A stretch of DNA of 54,933 nucleotides. Source: Hormoscilla sp. (GTDB lineage: Bacteria > Cyanobacteriota > Cyanobacteriia > Cyanobacteriales > Desertifilaceae). Each line of letters begins with the position of its first letter. The first letter of the stretch is position 1. The DNA lies in the NCBI GenBank assembly GCA_051439505.1, contig JBFRWI010000093.1, positions 1-54,933 of the forward strand. The letters run 5' to 3'. Of the stretch, positions 18,001-27,000 are shown in pieces. Position numbers: made by a program.

Positions 18001-21000
18001 AAAATACGGGGTTACTCCCAGATTAAACAGCGAGTTTTCAGATGCGGACAATGTCTATATCGTAGAGGGCGATCGGGCATTGCTCTCAGCCCTGAGAAGT
18101 TCCGAACTGAAGGATTACACCGAATACATCGAGCCTAACTATGTCTACGAGACTAGCTTGATACCCAACGATCCGGACTATCCCCAGCAGTGGAATCTTC
18201 GCAGCATTAACATTGAGCCCGCTTGGGATGAAACTAAGGGTGATGGGGTGACGGTGGCGGTGCTGGACACGGGCATCAGTAGGGTCCCCGACTTACAAGA
18301 CACCAAGTTCGTCCCAGGCTACGACTTTGTCAACGATCGCATCGAAGCAGACGATGATGTGGGTCACGGTACTCATGTTGCTGGTACTATCGCCCAAACC
18401 ACCAATAACGAGTATGGCGTGGCTGGCATCGCCCACGAAGCCAAACTCATGTCCCTCAAGGTGCTGTCTGCCAGTGGCAGTGGCACGGTGGCGGATATTG
18501 CCGAAGCGATCAAATTTGCTGCGGATAATCAGGCGAATATAATCAATATGAGCTTGGGTGGCGGTGGCGAAAGCCAATTGATGAAAGAGGCGATCGATTA
18601 TGCTCACCAAAAGGGGGTGACGATCGTGGCAGCAGCTGGCAACGAAAATCATAATGCCGCTAGCTACCCCGCCCGCTATCCCCATGTGATCGGCGTTGCG
18701 GCAAGCGGTCCAGCAGCGGAAAAAGCCCCCTACTCTAACTTTGGTGCTGGTGTGGATATCTCAGCCCCCGGTGGCGTACTCACAGAAGACAGCTCTAATG
18801 GTGGGATTCTCCAAAATACGATCGATCCAGAAACTGGCAAAGCAATTTTTGCTGCTTACCAGGGCACTAGCATGGCCTCTCCCCATGTTGCAGCTGTGGC
18901 AGCTTTGGTGAAATCATCTGGCGTAGAAAACCCTGATGAAATTCTAGAGATTCTCAAGCAGTCCTCCAGGAAAGTGGCAGAAGACCCACTTAACCACTTT
19001 GGCGCAGGTCATCTGGATGCTGCGGCTGCTGTTAAACTCGCCTTGCGAGGGCAAATTAATTTCCGGGATTTTTTCCGCTGGCTACGAGATAACGGCTATC
19101 TGAATCCTGGTTTCTGGATAGATGGCGGCGCGATCGCACTCTTGCCTAAGATTGCAATGGTATTGGGTTCCTATCTGCTAGCCTGGTTACTGCGGTATTA
19201 TTTCCCCTTCGGCTGGAGTTGGTCCCTGGCTACCGGTCTAGTTGCTGGCAGCAGTGGCCTATTCCCACTACGCGGCTTTTATCTGTTCGACCTGCCGCAA
19301 TGGCCGTTCCGGATGATGGGCAGTTCCATTCCCGAACTGGGTAACGCCGTTACTGGCAGCACTTTGTTAAACCCTCTGTTTGCTAGTATCCTCATCCCAG
19401 CGGTGCTGGTGCTGTTGCTGCTGGGACATCCTCGCTGGAAATGGTTTGCTATTGGCACAACTCTGGGGGTCGCTAGCTGTCTGGCGGTGAATGCTGTGGT
19501 AGACCCAGGCATGTTATGGTTGGGTGCTAGCATTCCAGCCCGTCTATTCTTGCTAGTGAATGCTCTGTTATGCTTTGCACTGGCCCGTTTAGCGGTGAAA
19601 GGAGAAGGAGAGCTAGCATGAGCATTAACGTCACTGGCAAGATCGAACGCAAAGGATTTGGTCCGGGTACTTGGGCTCTGGTAACTGATGAAACTACCTA
19701 TGAACTTAAAGATGCCCCGGCTGAGTTACGCCAAGCTGGACGAAAGGTCAAAGTTGAAGGTAAAGTGCGAGATGATGTCATGACTTTGGCTATGATTGGT
19801 CCGGTTCTGGAAGTTAACTCTTTTGAAATGTTGGAATAGTGCAATGCCCGAAACCAGGTTTCTCAAAGAAACCTGGTTTCTAGTCAAGCGAGGAACAGTC
19901 TTTGTGACAGCAATAACAATGATGCAGCTACTACAAACGTTATATTGCCGATTTTAACGTTTGTTGGTTTGGGCCGGTTAGACTAACGGATAACCAAAAT
20001 CAACGTATGTTTGGCCCGGTTAGACGTTATTCTCACCAAAATCAACGTATGTTTGGGCCGGTTAGACGTTATTCTCACCAAAATCAACGTATGTTTGGCC
20101 CGGTTAGACGTTATTCTCACCAAAATCAACGTATGTTTGGGCCGGTTAGACTAACGGATAACCAAAATCAACGTATGTTTGGGCTGGTTAGACTAACGGA
20201 TAACCAAAATCAACGTATGTTTGGGCCGGTTAGACTAACGGATAACCAAAATCAACGTATGTTTGGCCCGGTTAGACTAACGGATAACCAAAATTAACGT
20301 ATGTTTGGGCCGGTTAGACTAACGGATAACCAAAATCAACGTATGTTTGGGCCGGTTAGACTAACGGATAACTCAGACAAATGCAAGTCTTGTCCAAATA
20401 AACGCTCGTCGAACCCAGCCTCTACGCTCTCTATGACTCCAGTGGTGGGTCACAAATCGTGTTTTCGATGCATTAACACTACTTGTGACCGGATCTCATT
20501 GATTACCTCGCCGCATTAGTCGATTTTGGCATTTATGCTACGAGGTCTACTGTATAACTGGTCTTTATTTCTGCGTGAGTCCCTAATCCTGGTGCTTGCC
20601 TTGGTTAATAACAAGAGTGTGTTTGTATTAGTGATTGCTGGCTCAGCTGCGCTAGGCAGTGGACTCGGTCCCCTGTCGGTGTTGCTGTAGCACTGATGTG
20701 GCGGTTTGGATTCAATCTATCTGATGACATATTGGAAATCGTATCCGGTATGGTTGCTAGTGCTCTTGTATATTTAGTTGCTAGGCTTTTCGCTCTCAAC
20801 TAAGCAAAAGGCCAGAATCTTGAATAATTTAGTATCGGACTCCTAGATAATTTTACGGAATTACAAGTGTTTTCCGATGGCGAGGCAAATCAATTTGAAG
20901 TTTTATACTGTAACCTTCAATTCAGTAAGCAAAATACTTCGCTCATCAGACTTCATCATACTTTTTGAGGAGATAGAAGTCTCACGCTGAAGAAAAAAAC

Positions 21001-24000: not shown

Positions 24001-27000
24001 GGGAACGGCAACTACAGCTTGGACGATGTCCGACGTTTCTGGGAATGGGCTGCCAAACAGGAAGGAGATAATCCTATTTATTATAATGCTCTTGGTTTTG
24101 CTTATTATGCTCTTGGCGATCTGGATGCAGCTTACTCTAGCTGGCTCCAGGTACTGGGGTTGATTAAAAATTCCCAACTACCCGAGGGAGAACGGCAAGT
24201 TTGTGCTATTAATCAAGATGGACTGACTGCTTGTGCGGGGTTAGCTCTTGTGCTTTCCAAATCTGCTCAGAACCTGCCCCCTGACAAACAAGAGGTAATG
24301 ATCGCTCGGGCTCTATCTTTGCACCAGCAGGTTATCCAAGCGGATCCGAACAATTTTCAGCCCCTGGCCTTAGCTAAAAATAATTGGCTCTGGACCGAAA
24401 CCGCCATCGCTGATTGGCGATCGCTCTTCGAGGGAGAATGAGAAGGATAATTTAAAATCTAAAATTTAGAACTGAGCAAGATTTAATTGCTCCATTGCTC
24501 CGCCCAAAAAGCGAAGGCACTCAGGGGCTAAAAATGCCGCAACAGATATAAAACTTGGCGTTACCAGACTGCTTGTGTTAGACTGAAGAGTCAAAGAGAC
24601 TGATGGGCTAAGGGTTATGTCACGGGTCTACAGTACTGAGGAGTTAATCGAAATATTGGCCAGAGAGCGTCAAGCTTGCATGCAGGGAGAGCGCCTCAAT
24701 CTTAAGGCCAAAGCTTCTGGCAATCCTGCGATCGATTGCTTGCTAAACGTTGAGGGGCTGCAAAAGTTTACGGCCTATCAAGATTTTAAGGGGACGGTTC
24801 ACCGCTACCAGCGCGAACACCAAGTCTCGGGTATTGTCTGGCGTATGCTGCTTGTTAAGGGTAAGACTCTCCATTATCCGGTAGTCCACGAGCATCTGAT
24901 CGCTTTGCCAGGGGATCTGGAGATCCTGAAGGCCCATCAGGCGGAAGTGTTGGTATTCTGGCAAGAGGTGACGCCGGAAATGGAACTGTATTTGAGTCTT
25001 GGCAGCGGTAAGGACTACCGACCGATCGCGCCTGGGGAGGTAGAAGAACTTGCTGGCAGAACCCAATGGGCTAACCTTTGGAAATGGGAGAAGTCAGATT
25101 TTCTGGAAATGGTCTTGCAGTTGGGATGGGGAAAACCCTCTGAGGCGTCTTACCGACGGGGATGGCCCGCATCTGGTAGCGAGTACGTTCATGCTGTTAA
25201 ACCTGGTGCTCGTCCCATTTGTTAAGATAGCTGGGGTGAGGAGATGAAGAGATGAGGGGAGAGATACCAGTTCAATGAACCTCAATGATTTGAAAGAAGA
25301 GGTTAGCTGTGCCTATGTTAATTTGGTCGCATCCTTTGCGGGCTACTCATTTCAAAGAGCAGATAGACGATCGGATAACGACGGTATTGACGGAACCATT
25401 AAAGTGCCTAGATGGATAGAGTCAAGTCGTCCCCAGCTTGAGGTGCAGGTGAAATGCACTTCGAGAGATGTTGTTGAAGATGATTACATTCGCTATCCTC
25501 TCAAGGTGAAAAATTATGAATAATTGAGAGTAGAAGAGACTTTAATTCCTCAGATTTTGGTTTTGATTGTACTGCCAGAAAACGTCAGTGAATGGTTTCG
25601 TCAGTCTGAAGATGAGCAGATTATCAAGCTGAGCGCATACTGGTTATCGTTGCGCGGTTATCTACCGACCAAAAATAAATACACTGAGACAGTCTATTTA
25701 CCACGGACACAATTGTTTACTGTTAGCGAGATACAACAGATTATGCAGCGGATCGCAAGGGGAGAAAGGTTATGAAAGCAATTATCCGAGATGTTGATGT
25801 TCTCAATGCTATAGAACCGCCGCAGGTAGTTACATACCTGCAAGCTAATGGCTGGCATGAATATAGTAATAACGATCTGGCATCTACTTGGACTGATTCT
25901 GGAGAAAAATTAGAGGTGCTGTTACCTCTGAAACCTGAATTTACAGATTTCCATCGCCGCATGAGAGATGTTTTGGAGATTTTGGAATATGCGGAAGATC
26001 GATCGCAGTTAGAAATTATCAGTGATATTATTAATTATGATGCCGATGCGATCGCCTTGCGCGTACCTCCTCGTATTGCTGACAAAGGCAGAATTCCACT
26101 AGCAACCCATATTGAACTCATCCAATCTCTGAGAGATACCTTCCTCTGGGCAGCTTGTGCGACTATTAACAGACTTGCTTACTTTCGAGAACCCCCTTCC
26201 GAAGCCCTTGCCTATCTGGGTCAATTGCGACTCGGATTTTCTCCGCAATATCCTGCCTGCTTTGTTACTATTCTATCGCCAATTGATAGTGGTTATAGCA
26301 ATGGGAACATACCATTTTCTCGCCAAGTTGTCAATAGCTGGGTGCAAGCTTTGGAGGCGATCGCTTTGGCCGCAACTCAATCTCTTTCTACGGGGAATTT
26401 ATCGTCTTTTGTCGGCACGGAAGAACAGGGAGTTAGCGCTAATCTCTGCGCCGCAATTGCTCGGATATATGATATCATCGGCAATAGCAGCATCGAGATT
26501 GATTTGACTTGGTCGCCTATATTCCCCGTGGAAAAGCCCCGGCAAATTATTATCCCCGATCGGGCTTTGAGGGCGATCGCATCTATTGCCAGTCTGGGCA
26601 ATAATTTTCAGGAAAATTGGCAGCAAGAGTTGCATAAAGAGCTTGTCTAAATTTGCTACATGGGGTTCATATAAAAGGGTACACTGCACTTTTTTAATCT
26701 AGCCCGCGCAGGCGGGCTTTGTTCATGTAGCCGGACCCTTTAGGGTTCGGGCGGCGATGCTACGCGAATTCCCATTTACATTACCTCTAAACTCCCTTTG
26801 TTCACATTGACTTTATTGCCTGACAACTCGACCGTCGCAGAACCCTTCTTTAAGTTAATTGCTGAAGATGTTATTTCTACCACTGCTGCTGTTGTCTTAC
26901 TCATTTTTACTCCTGAGTCCGTTAACTGCACCTTAGCTTGATCCTTCTCTAGGTTGAACGCACTTTCCGTTAATTCCGCGATCGACTTGCTCTTCTTTAA

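Follow-up and report, generated by a model that had tools for sequence, protein, structure and literature searches.

NsiR1 small RNA genes adjoining hetF in a Hormoscilla lineage without nif genes, and a predicted pairing of NsiR1 with the patU start region

Background

The closest described counterpart of the locus analyzed here is the NsiR1 array of Nostoc (Anabaena) sp. PCC 7120 which shares with it tandem RNAs of about 55 nt, an individual TCCGGA promoter and terminator for each RNA, divergent orientation relative to hetF, and the same 5' segment (PMC9045159, PMC4030482). Overexpression of NsiR1 in Nostoc raises HetR, accelerates commitment and yields heterocysts on nitrate (PMC9045159). 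The TCCGGA box is read by the sigma factor HetZ, and the core circuit consisting of HetR-PatS/PatX and HetZ-PatU comprises the same proteins, promoter form and type of patX and patU promoters that we find here (PMC13342950); a patX-hetR pair with a DIF1 promoter of this type is also known from Leptolyngbya BL0902 (PMC11298460). The roles of HetR, HetZ, PatU and PatX in heterocyst-free filaments have been called open (PMC11298460, PMC12669612).

That NsiR1 occurs in non-heterocystous genomes is already in print. Table S3 of PMC4734099 gives NsiR1 homologs in 38 of 89 genomes, 27 of which are heterocystous, leaving 11 that are not, and Limnospira indica PCC 8005 expresses an NsiR1-like RNA, RNA162, that is backed by reads (PMC8400943). 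The survey had found no report of NsiR1 outside heterocystous strains; its mere occurrence in such a genome is not news. These records concern, as here, filaments without heterocysts, including a non-diazotroph; unlike here, their available portions contain no promoter, synteny or target analysis.

NsiR1 genes next to hetF

The window, that is, the whole stretch of 54,933 nucleotides of Hormoscilla sp. DNA that was analyzed, contains four full-length matches to the Rfam family RF02399 (NsiR1), all on the minus strand, with scores of 50.4-56 bits (Rfam gathering score, 39). In agreement with the survey, an Rfam search of the whole genome yielded 11 matches, 9 of them above the cut-off, in three loci: C93:20991-21579 (the window array, four copies), C228:7068-7968 (four or five) and C43:22753-22934 (one or two). 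An additional, 12th copy, which is degenerate and carries TCCGGA, was detected at about C228:7491-7545. By comparison, Nostoc (Anabaena) sp. PCC 7120 has 12 copies, against four at hetF and two further loci here. The window array is tandem and lies head-to-head with hetF:

17840..19621, plus strand: subtilase with DUF5942, a conserved downstream neighbor of NsiR1 loci in non-heterocystous relatives
20991..21044, minus strand: NsiR1 copy 1, with one change in the conserved 5' segment; terminator stem 21000-21019 (Rfam match, terminator search)
21074..21079, minus strand: -35 box of copy 1, TCCGAA (one mismatch), with AGAA 17 nt downstream
21153..21206, minus strand: NsiR1 copy 2; terminator stem 21162-21181 (Rfam match, terminator search)
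21236..21241, minus strand: -35 box of copy 2, TCCGGA, with AGAA 17 nt downstream
21316..21369, minus strand: NsiR1 copy 3; terminator stem 21325-21344 (Rfam match, terminator search)
21399..21404, minus strand: -35 box of copy 3, TCCGGA, with AGAA 17 nt downstream
21526..21579, minus strand: NsiR1 copy 4, closest to hetF, its 5' end 289 nt from the hetF start; terminator stem 21535-21554 (Rfam match, terminator search)
21588..21614, minus strand: sigma-HetZ-type promoter of copy 4, TCCGGA (21614-21609), 17 nt, AGAA (21591-21588); top score in the genome, consensus from PMC13342950
21667..21695, plus strand: weak sigma-70-like site (9/12) between the array and hetF, a possible hetF promoter overlapping no NsiR1 copy
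21868..24441, plus strand: hetF orthologue, 857 aa, with a CHAT protease domain (HYAGH 240-244, NSC 287-289), TPR repeats and a C-terminal part matching HetF

Each of the four copies ends, as the survey had claimed, in its own terminator, a GC hairpin followed by a U run; five terminator-like matches (one overlapping another) were found compared with 0.9 in shuffled sequence. Its reading of the CHAT protease as HetF is now backed by 50-64% identity to the proteins encoded at other nsiR1 loci (the next paralog shows 30% over the CHAT part), by the match in the C-terminal part and by the conserved position. The protein, which has the His/Cys pair of the CHAT domain, is the best match in the genome to the curated profile NF045509, at 759 bits, below a cut-off of 1200 that only the 19 genomes of family f6 reach among 151. 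These findings identify the window copies as genuine NsiR1 genes with DIF1 promoters, adjoining a hetF orthologue in a host lineage without nif. RNA-run contigs of a relative include one NsiR1 copy adjoining hetF; given that this relative is, by the search tool's count, less than 90% alike and that the contigs cover a small share of the stretch at flat depth and without strand information, they do not show transcription.

Promoters and the core circuit

An exact TCCGGA precedes 7 of the 9 copies above the cut-off, as had been reported, and 9 of all 11, with one mismatch at C93:20991 and C43:22753; its first base lies 32-36 nt upstream of the model start, and at random genome positions the box occurs in 0.3% of cases exactly and in 7% with at most one mismatch. 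With one mismatch allowed, it is found at 118 of 123 NsiR1 copies outside f6 and 87 of 88 within it, promoters having played no part in the choice of copies. The sigma-HetZ promoter combines TCCGGA, 16-17 nt and a TGnA-like -10 element (with A allowed at -13 and -11), and both boxes are present in 9 of 11 copies under a relaxed nG[ATC]A rule for the -10 (background, 0.6%). Thus, the DIF1 boxes described by the survey stand, whereas its view of them as HetR-dependent does not, since PMC13342950 identifies the factor as HetZ. A box of the HetR type (GGG-N5-CCC) 400 nt upstream of hetZ amounts to no more than chance.

HetZ of this genome scores 606 bits (cut-off, 550) and retains 14 of the 15 published promoter-contact residues, with E61 replaced by Q. 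Using a matrix trained on NsiR1 promoters of other genomes, the patX promoter is the best intergenic site apart from NsiR1 itself, and the scan for the sigma-HetZ regulon recovered patX and patU; its two top matches are IS elements, and the 20 further genes annotated have no shared theme. One observation counts against a HetZ-driven model: loss of hetZ in Anabaena lowers the nsiR1 ChIP peak, yet Dataset S2 of PMC13342950 lists the expression of nsiR1 in that mutant as 'up'.

The profile search confirmed HetR, HetZ and PatD, along with two HetZ relatives; the PatD profile also matches in Synechococcus elongatus, so its presence says little. The HetR-PatX/HetZ-PatU circuit is complete, with hetR, the RGSGR protein PatX under a DIF1 promoter, a hetZ-patU operon, and the HetF cleavage Arg in PatU. 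The absence of nif genes claimed earlier holds in that nifD and nifH yielded only weak matches below the cut-off in this genome, and nifD was found in none of the five genomes of the genus. Unlike Nostoc (Anabaena) sp. PCC 7120, the host also shows no HetP-family gene (NF037966; the hetP-like trans target of the alr3234 type) in its 93% complete genome, nor do G029 and G002, the profile being found in three of five control genomes; such a target is a property of the Nostoc RNA rather than of Rfam family membership. No PfaA/HglE-type (hgl-type) glycolipid synthase was found above the cut-off either (best score 783 bits, against 1418-1430 in both f6 genomes compared), and a PKS cluster on C161 was ruled out as an hgl island by score and neighbors.

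Distribution of NsiR1

Among 151 cyanobacterial genomes, NsiR1 exceeds the cut-off in 39, and HetZ in exactly the same 39; PatU is present in 38 of these, and HetR in all 39 and one more. Nine of the 39 lack nifD, and 7 genomes that have nifD are without NsiR1. NsiR1 is found in all 14 genomes of the host family, as the survey had it, with the highest copy number here, and 9 of these lack nifD. The best explanation of this pattern appears to be that NsiR1 is a standing part of the old HetR-PatX/HetZ-PatU circuit of filamentous cyanobacteria, not of nitrogen fixation. The module predates heterocysts, as the survey proposed.

Complementarity of NsiR1 to the patU start region

NsiR1 begins with 16 nt that hardly vary, and these are complementary to the 16 nt directly before the patU start codon, within the arrangement TCCGGA-16 nt-ATGAAT that is present in 44 of 48 hetZ/patU junctions. 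Measured against 2547 control start regions, the site falls in the best 1% at 27 of the 44 junctions: 10 of the 13 seen first and 17 of the 31 added later. This corresponds to 12 of 23 different spacers and to 6 of 10 families. The counts are to be read as those of a site noticed post hoc in related genomes, which are non-independent samples. The family mean is -12.5 kcal/mol compared with -7.6 +/- 1.4 for shuffled seeds, 6 of 2000 of which are as good, and only 3 of 544 start regions of other genomes are as good as -17.8. Where the site lies within the last hetZ codons, Ala is GCA in 27 of 27 cases and Ser is TCT in 26 of 32, and synonymous recoding of the hetZ end weakens the pairing (p <= 0.05 in 23 of 34). 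The A that faces U7 of NsiR1 is kept in 44 of 44 patU sites; in the NsiR1 promoter spacers, no position exceeds 0.58. A promoter spacer, ribosome-binding region and reading frame also coincide at this site, and compensatory changes are not countable because the RNA side barely varies.

The pairing is uneven across lineages. In this genome the predicted duplex does not go beyond -10.8 kcal/mol (p 0.05-0.08), which places it 616th among 4122 start regions. In the host genus the site is reduced to a core of 8-9 bp, so that the proposed loop could be weak in this lineage or depend on different targets. The site is weak or lost in genus g79, f4, f10, f13, f17 and G071, and G038, G041, G008 and G092 offer no anchor for it; in all of these the NsiR1 5' segment is unchanged, and hence patU cannot be the sole reason for its conservation. 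Part of this segment is predicted to lie within a weak hairpin in the window copies, which counts against free pairing, as does against the patU model the lack of a mutant phenotype for patU5, whose start bears the site in Anabaena-like genomes. The Nostoc overexpression phenotypes fit the model, their direction being that expected from less PatU3. No report of an NsiR1-patU link was found in the literature, and neither the main text nor the supplement of PMC9045159 names patU or hetZ; other studies may contain earlier target predictions. The analysis suggests that this complementarity, with its putative role in blocking PatU synthesis, is new.

No target stands out in the genome-wide search of this genome: the best candidate reaches -23 kcal/mol and shuffled seeds -20 to -22, and the top candidate, an ABC ATPase gene on C53, was not found in two congeners, the site being missing in two homologs. 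Start regions of HetZ-related-2 in 28 genomes showed no conserved pairing site at the start codon; a good match is located about 120 nt upstream of the model start in three f6 genomes.

Proposed mechanism and alternatives

We favor, with a probability of roughly 0.55, a model in which an sRNA made by sigma-HetZ lowers PatU translation in a positive loop older than heterocysts. HetZ would transcribe each of the four NsiR1 genes from its own TCCGGA-17-AGAA promoter, with transcription ending at the respective terminator. The 5' 16 nt, if single-stranded, would then base-pair, on the hetZ-patU transcript, with the 16 nt that lead up to the patU start codon; we infer that this would reduce translation of PatU, the anti-sigma factor of HetZ (also a cell-division inhibitor in Anabaena). 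HetZ would be freed, sharpening the on/off switch. HetF, the product of the adjoining gene, removes PatU by proteolysis.

Spot 42 uncouples an operon at galK by pairing at an inner start region. By analogy, an RNA bound where a downstream gene begins would alter how much of each of two co-transcribed proteins is made relative to the other. What differs is that the predicted target here encodes the anti-sigma factor acting on the very sigma factor responsible for synthesis of the RNA, and that the sequences are unrelated. Relative to the core circuit of PMC13342950, whose available part has no NsiR1-to-patU RNA link, this link is the addition.

The survey's view, that the module serves to set single cells apart for a fate other than the heterocyst, is possible but less likely than not; it is compatible with the patU loop. 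In this reading, NsiR1 would be produced in cells spaced along the filament in a pattern, which could become survival cells or necridia at which filaments break. The host has the entire minimal patterning circuit of PMC13342950, necridia have been conjectured as an old output (PMC7761841, PMC12669612), and PMC8400943 cites spaced pigment-rich cells of Arthrospira. Conversely, the PatX effects in Leptolyngbya BL0902 are largely HetR-independent (PMC11298460), and, patX and patU aside, the predicted sigma-HetZ sites of this genome do not point to a coherent set of morphogenetic genes.

That NsiR1 serves as a cis-antisense RNA on the hetF leader seems unlikely here. This mechanism has been demonstrated in Nostoc (PMC9045159), and PMC8406250 places the hetF start site at -256. 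Among the matches listed, a divergent copy lies 212-715 nt upstream of hetF in 7 of 20 sampled genomes outside f6, as it does in 10 of 80 named loci and in all four congeners; the other 13 of the 20 have no hetF-adjoining copy among those matches. Here 289 nt separate hetF from the nearest copy, compared with 173-198 nt in most f6 loci, and this copy does not have the variant sequence found in the hetF-proximal copy of f6 (the Nostocales variant, compared with Nostoc). Moreover, no conserved hetF promoter was found beyond the terminator, the weak one between array and gene is one of two sigma-70-like sites where 1.3 are expected, that is, not above chance, and removal of the nsiR1.1 -10 box barely alters an Anabaena hetF reporter.

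We also consider it unlikely that the 5' segment is a protein-binding motif and the complementarity a by-product, whether the motif acts in the RNA, as a decoy for a protein such as PatR or PatU, or in the DNA, as a site shared with the patU promoter spacer. The abundance of short copies in which the motif is fixed but the terminators are free to vary, and the constancy of the motif where the patU site is lost, are in line with this idea, and NsiR1 is enriched in PatR CLIP while PatU3 binds RNA in vivo (PMC11797042). Against it, no partner is known to require the motif, and the match falls exactly over a start region within the single operon whose occurrence parallels that of NsiR1, on the strand needed for pairing (the opposite strand reaches -8.8 kcal/mol against the -12.5 above). 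A decaying relic or selfish repeat, functionless in a non-diazotroph, would account for the unstable copy number at the hetF locus (four here, one or two in congeners), the degenerate C228 copy and the altered 5' segment at that locus in two congeners, but is very improbable given that the -35, -10, 5' segment and terminator are conserved while spacers diverge and that NsiR1 persists throughout the family, including its nifD-less members.

Implications

Returning to the predicted patU loop, we advance tentatively, and with somewhat less than even confidence, the broader view that the core cell-fate circuit of filamentous cyanobacteria has a fifth member, the RNA NsiR1, which is made by sigma-HetZ and frees it through pairing at the patU start. 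Such a loop would predate heterocysts, explain the fixed 5' segment, and still run in non-fixing filaments to set apart single cells such as necridia. If true, the pairing would supply the heterocyst circuit with a feedback missing from it so far, testable in Anabaena and in E. coli with published reporters, and the NsiR1 promoters may provide a short reporter for sigma-HetZ activity in heterocyst-free strains.

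NsiR1 genes of the window

The survey had placed four copies of the ~55-nt sRNA NsiR1 (Rfam RF02399, cut-off 39 bits) in the window, and all four are there, full length, on the minus strand, with scores of 50.4-56 bits and a terminator at each (4/4); a 162-nt tandem repeat holds three of them. The array and other features of the window are as follows.

65-231: HEARO RNA match (73 bits, below the cut-off of 83)
6375-6469 and 6574-6670: bacterial small SRP RNA, two in tandem, both above the cut-off
15381-17634: presumed ftsQ-ftsZ-like genes, named from translation, ~4 kb from hetF, whose product is a divisome protein in Anabaena
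19967-20372: 42-nt unit repeated 9.7 times in tandem, with the units 93% alike, in the stretch that separates the subtilase region from the NsiR1 array; confined to this contig (C93)
20991-21579, minus strand: NsiR1 array
21868-24441, plus strand: hetF, facing the array
26776-34437: gene run whose translations we take to resemble parts of a contractile injection system, namely phage baseplate and spike proteins

The three loci described for the genome (93% complete) were recovered with 11 matches, 9 of them above the cut-off, and the array on contig C228 contains a degenerate twelfth copy. The TCCGGA box (DIF1, -35) reported upstream of the copies is exact in 9 of the 11 and has one mismatch in the other two, against a background at random positions of 0.3% exact and 7% with one mismatch allowed. 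It is virtually certain that the window array consists of NsiR1 genes; the array is real and intact, and ordinary in its distribution. The order subtilase-nsiR1-hetF is kept in 4/4 congeners, and because these carry only 1-2 copies each at this locus, the four window copies represent a local expansion.

Promoters and the HetZ sigma factor

Among NsiR1 copies selected in the sampled loci by a 14-nt core with at most 2 mismatches (215 copies, 4 of which were dropped because of Ns or flanks that were too short), a TCCGGA box with at most one mismatch lies upstream of 118/123 copies outside family f6 and 87/88 within it, followed by a fitting -10 box in 78 and 87 copies, respectively. We take f6 to be the heterocyst-forming family, given nifD in 19/19 genomes and hgl-type synthases in 2/2 tested; many of its nifD matches stop short, presumably as in interrupted nifD genes. 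A matrix trained on 194 promoters drawn from 37 other genomes identified the patX promoter (TCCTGA-17-CGAA) as the top non-NsiR1 intergenic site of the Hormoscilla genome and also recovered the hetZ/patU junction; the remaining matches there show no common theme among genes. PMC13342950 shows HetZ to be a sigma factor that recognizes TCCGGA-16/17-TGnA and is inhibited by PatU3; the nsiR1 ChIP peak drops in a hetZ mutant, yet expression is listed as up. Hormoscilla HetZ retains 14 of 15 promoter-contact residues, and transcription of the window copies by HetZ or HetZ' is highly probable.

Families f3 and f4 have, in each genome, one NsiR1 copy that lacks TCCGGA and is preceded by a GGG-N5-CCC box and then TATACT or TATAGT (L064 in G145, L318 in G137, L324 in G115, L086 in G008, L090 in G014, L321 in G092). 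This is a HetR-type box (PMC4192349), so that these copies are possibly under direct HetR control.

Distribution and host gene content

NsiR1 exceeds the cut-off in 39 of 151 genomes in a single sample of the phylum, in which related genomes do not count as independent and a single family supplies 55 negatives; there are 8 further weak matches. HetZ is above its cut-off in the very same 39 genomes, all of which also have HetR (found in addition in G123) and 38 of which have PatU. In genome G041, the HetZ match ends at position 342 of a 943-aa frame (L302) and PatU was not found, yet there are 9 NsiR1 matches. nifD went undetected in 9 of the 39, two single-contig assemblies among them, and was found in 7 genomes of the sample without NsiR1. 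A pattern scan of named genomes, designed to avoid f6 sequence, gave at least 122 stretches; the 80 matches listed include Microcoleus vaginatus, Nodosilinea, Coleofasciculus, Symploca, Okeania, Spirulina, Geitlerinema, Leptolyngbya, Potamolinea and others, and Rfam NsiR1 was confirmed at 18/18 checked loci. Recurrent neighborhoods among 164 copy groups are hetF (27), cobM-lgt (16-18) and a DUF5942 subtilase (11), which also flanks the window array. The cobM-lgt interval carries a single copy in 8 families (L048, L051, L055, L060, L063, L078 and others), with the promoter close to the cobM start; in Hormoscilla this interval, on C146, has no copy.

The occurrence of NsiR1 outside heterocyst-formers, which the survey had presented as unreported, is already in print. 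PMC4734099 gives homologs in 38/89 genomes, 27 of them heterocystous (Table S3), with NsiR1 columns marked for, among others, Trichodesmium IMS101, Arthrospira 8005 and Microcoleus FGP-2, and an NsiR1-like RNA was measured in Limnospira (PMC8400943). Further known literature comprises PMC6596454, PMC4030482, PMC4365693, PMC8406250, PMC11797042 and PMC12288457.

Neither nifD nor nifH was found in the Hormoscilla genome (93% complete); nifD is found in 0/5 genomes of the genus, two of these in 6-7 contigs, and in 5/14 of the family. Searches of the Hormoscilla genome found no HetP-family gene and no hgl-type synthase above the cut-off. It encodes HetR, HetZ-PatU, two HetZ relatives, PatD and, upstream of hetR, a PatX of 102 aa that contains two RGSGR motifs. 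It also contains an iterative PKS cluster (C161:16483-30451, L248) whose neighbors resemble sulfatases and sulfotransferases; a cluster in G029 matches it in score. Published work describes a strain without nif that has hetR, hetZ-patU and, under a predicted DIF1 promoter, patX (PMC11298460), and regulators that predate heterocysts, with necridia conjectured (PMC12669612, PMC7761841). That the module gives a patterned single-cell fate, as the survey proposed, is conceivable, at somewhat less than even odds.

A predicted NsiR1 target at the patU start

The NsiR1 5' segment is constant across families, in part by construction given that copies were selected on it, and spacers and terminators drift. 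In the hetZ-patU alignment, a fixed TCCGGA is followed by 16 nt up to the patU ATG, and these 16 nt approximate the reverse complement of the NsiR1 segment. The arrangement TCCGGA-16-ATGAAT occurs in 44 of 48 hetZ/patU junctions (39 from the HetZ genomes, 9 from additional members of Hormoscilla's family) and is absent in four. Whether the 5' end is taken as 17 nt or as the mapped 16 nt, pairing ranks in the best 1% of 2547 Hormoscilla start regions for 27/44 junctions (10/13 of the first-noticed set, 17/31 of the later set), that is, 12/23 distinct spacers and 6/10 families. Family-weighted mean energies, which ignore accessibility, are -14.4 kcal/mol versus -8.2 for shuffled seeds at 17 nt (1/500 as good) and -12.5 versus -7.6 at 16 nt (6/2000 as good); only 3/544 control start regions from other genomes' loci reach -17.8.

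The site encodes the HetZ tail in 34 genomes, with third positions fixed in the pairing sense: GCA in 27/27 codons, TCT in 26/32, and third base A in 34/34 across six amino acids. Synonymous recoding of the tail weakens pairing (p <= 0.05 in 23/34). HetZ-related-2, a control gene of similar spread, has no conserved site at its start; a good match to the 5' segment lies ~120 nt before its model start in 3/10 f6 genomes (L340, L343, L347). These comparisons suggest, with a probability of about 0.55, that pairing of NsiR1 with the patU start is a real family-wide function. The site is weak or lost in g79, f4, f10, f13, f17 and G071, and weak in the genus Hormoscilla (-10.8 kcal/mol, rank 616 of 4122 start regions), where copy 1, with one 5' change, pairs at -13.4; effective pairing in this genome is rather doubtful.

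The alternative target is hetF: PMC9045159 names hetF and alr3234 as NsiR1 targets. The survey's assignment of the gene facing the array as the hetF orthologue stands, by best hit, a CHAT domain with His and Cys, and position; its product is 50-64% identical to proteins at other nsiR1 loci and scores 759 bits, below the curated HetF score of 1200, attained by f6 only. Antisense control of hetF in Hormoscilla is unlikely: the nearest copy is more distant from the gene than in f6 and lacks the f6 variant sequence, and no promoter is evident in the window that would make the hetF transcript overlap NsiR1. This variant, a one-base change of the 5' segment in the hetF-nearest copy, occurs in 8/8 of the f6 loci displayed (from L014-L031) and 0/13 clear non-f6 loci.

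HetF cleaves PatU3 after an Arg (PMC9457339), which aligns with an Arg in 13/13 PatU proteins, Hormoscilla's included. We favor patU as the target because a drop in HetF by itself would leave more PatU3 and work against differentiation, and NsiR1 promotes differentiation.

Implications for the patU gene

The literature searched, with three primary NsiR1 or PatX papers outside it, contained no NsiR1-patU link; the prediction is new as far as these searches reach, directly testable, and at its weakest in the Hormoscilla genome itself. TCCGGA-16-ATGAAT is in itself a perfect sigma-HetZ promoter with its -10 box inside the patU start codon, an overlap seen at L043:2614-2640 (G000:C58:10449, Hormoscilla) and 43 other junctions. 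A transcript from this promoter would begin inside patU, without the NsiR1 site, and encode a shortened PatU, and a promoter so placed may explain the split into patU5 and patU3.
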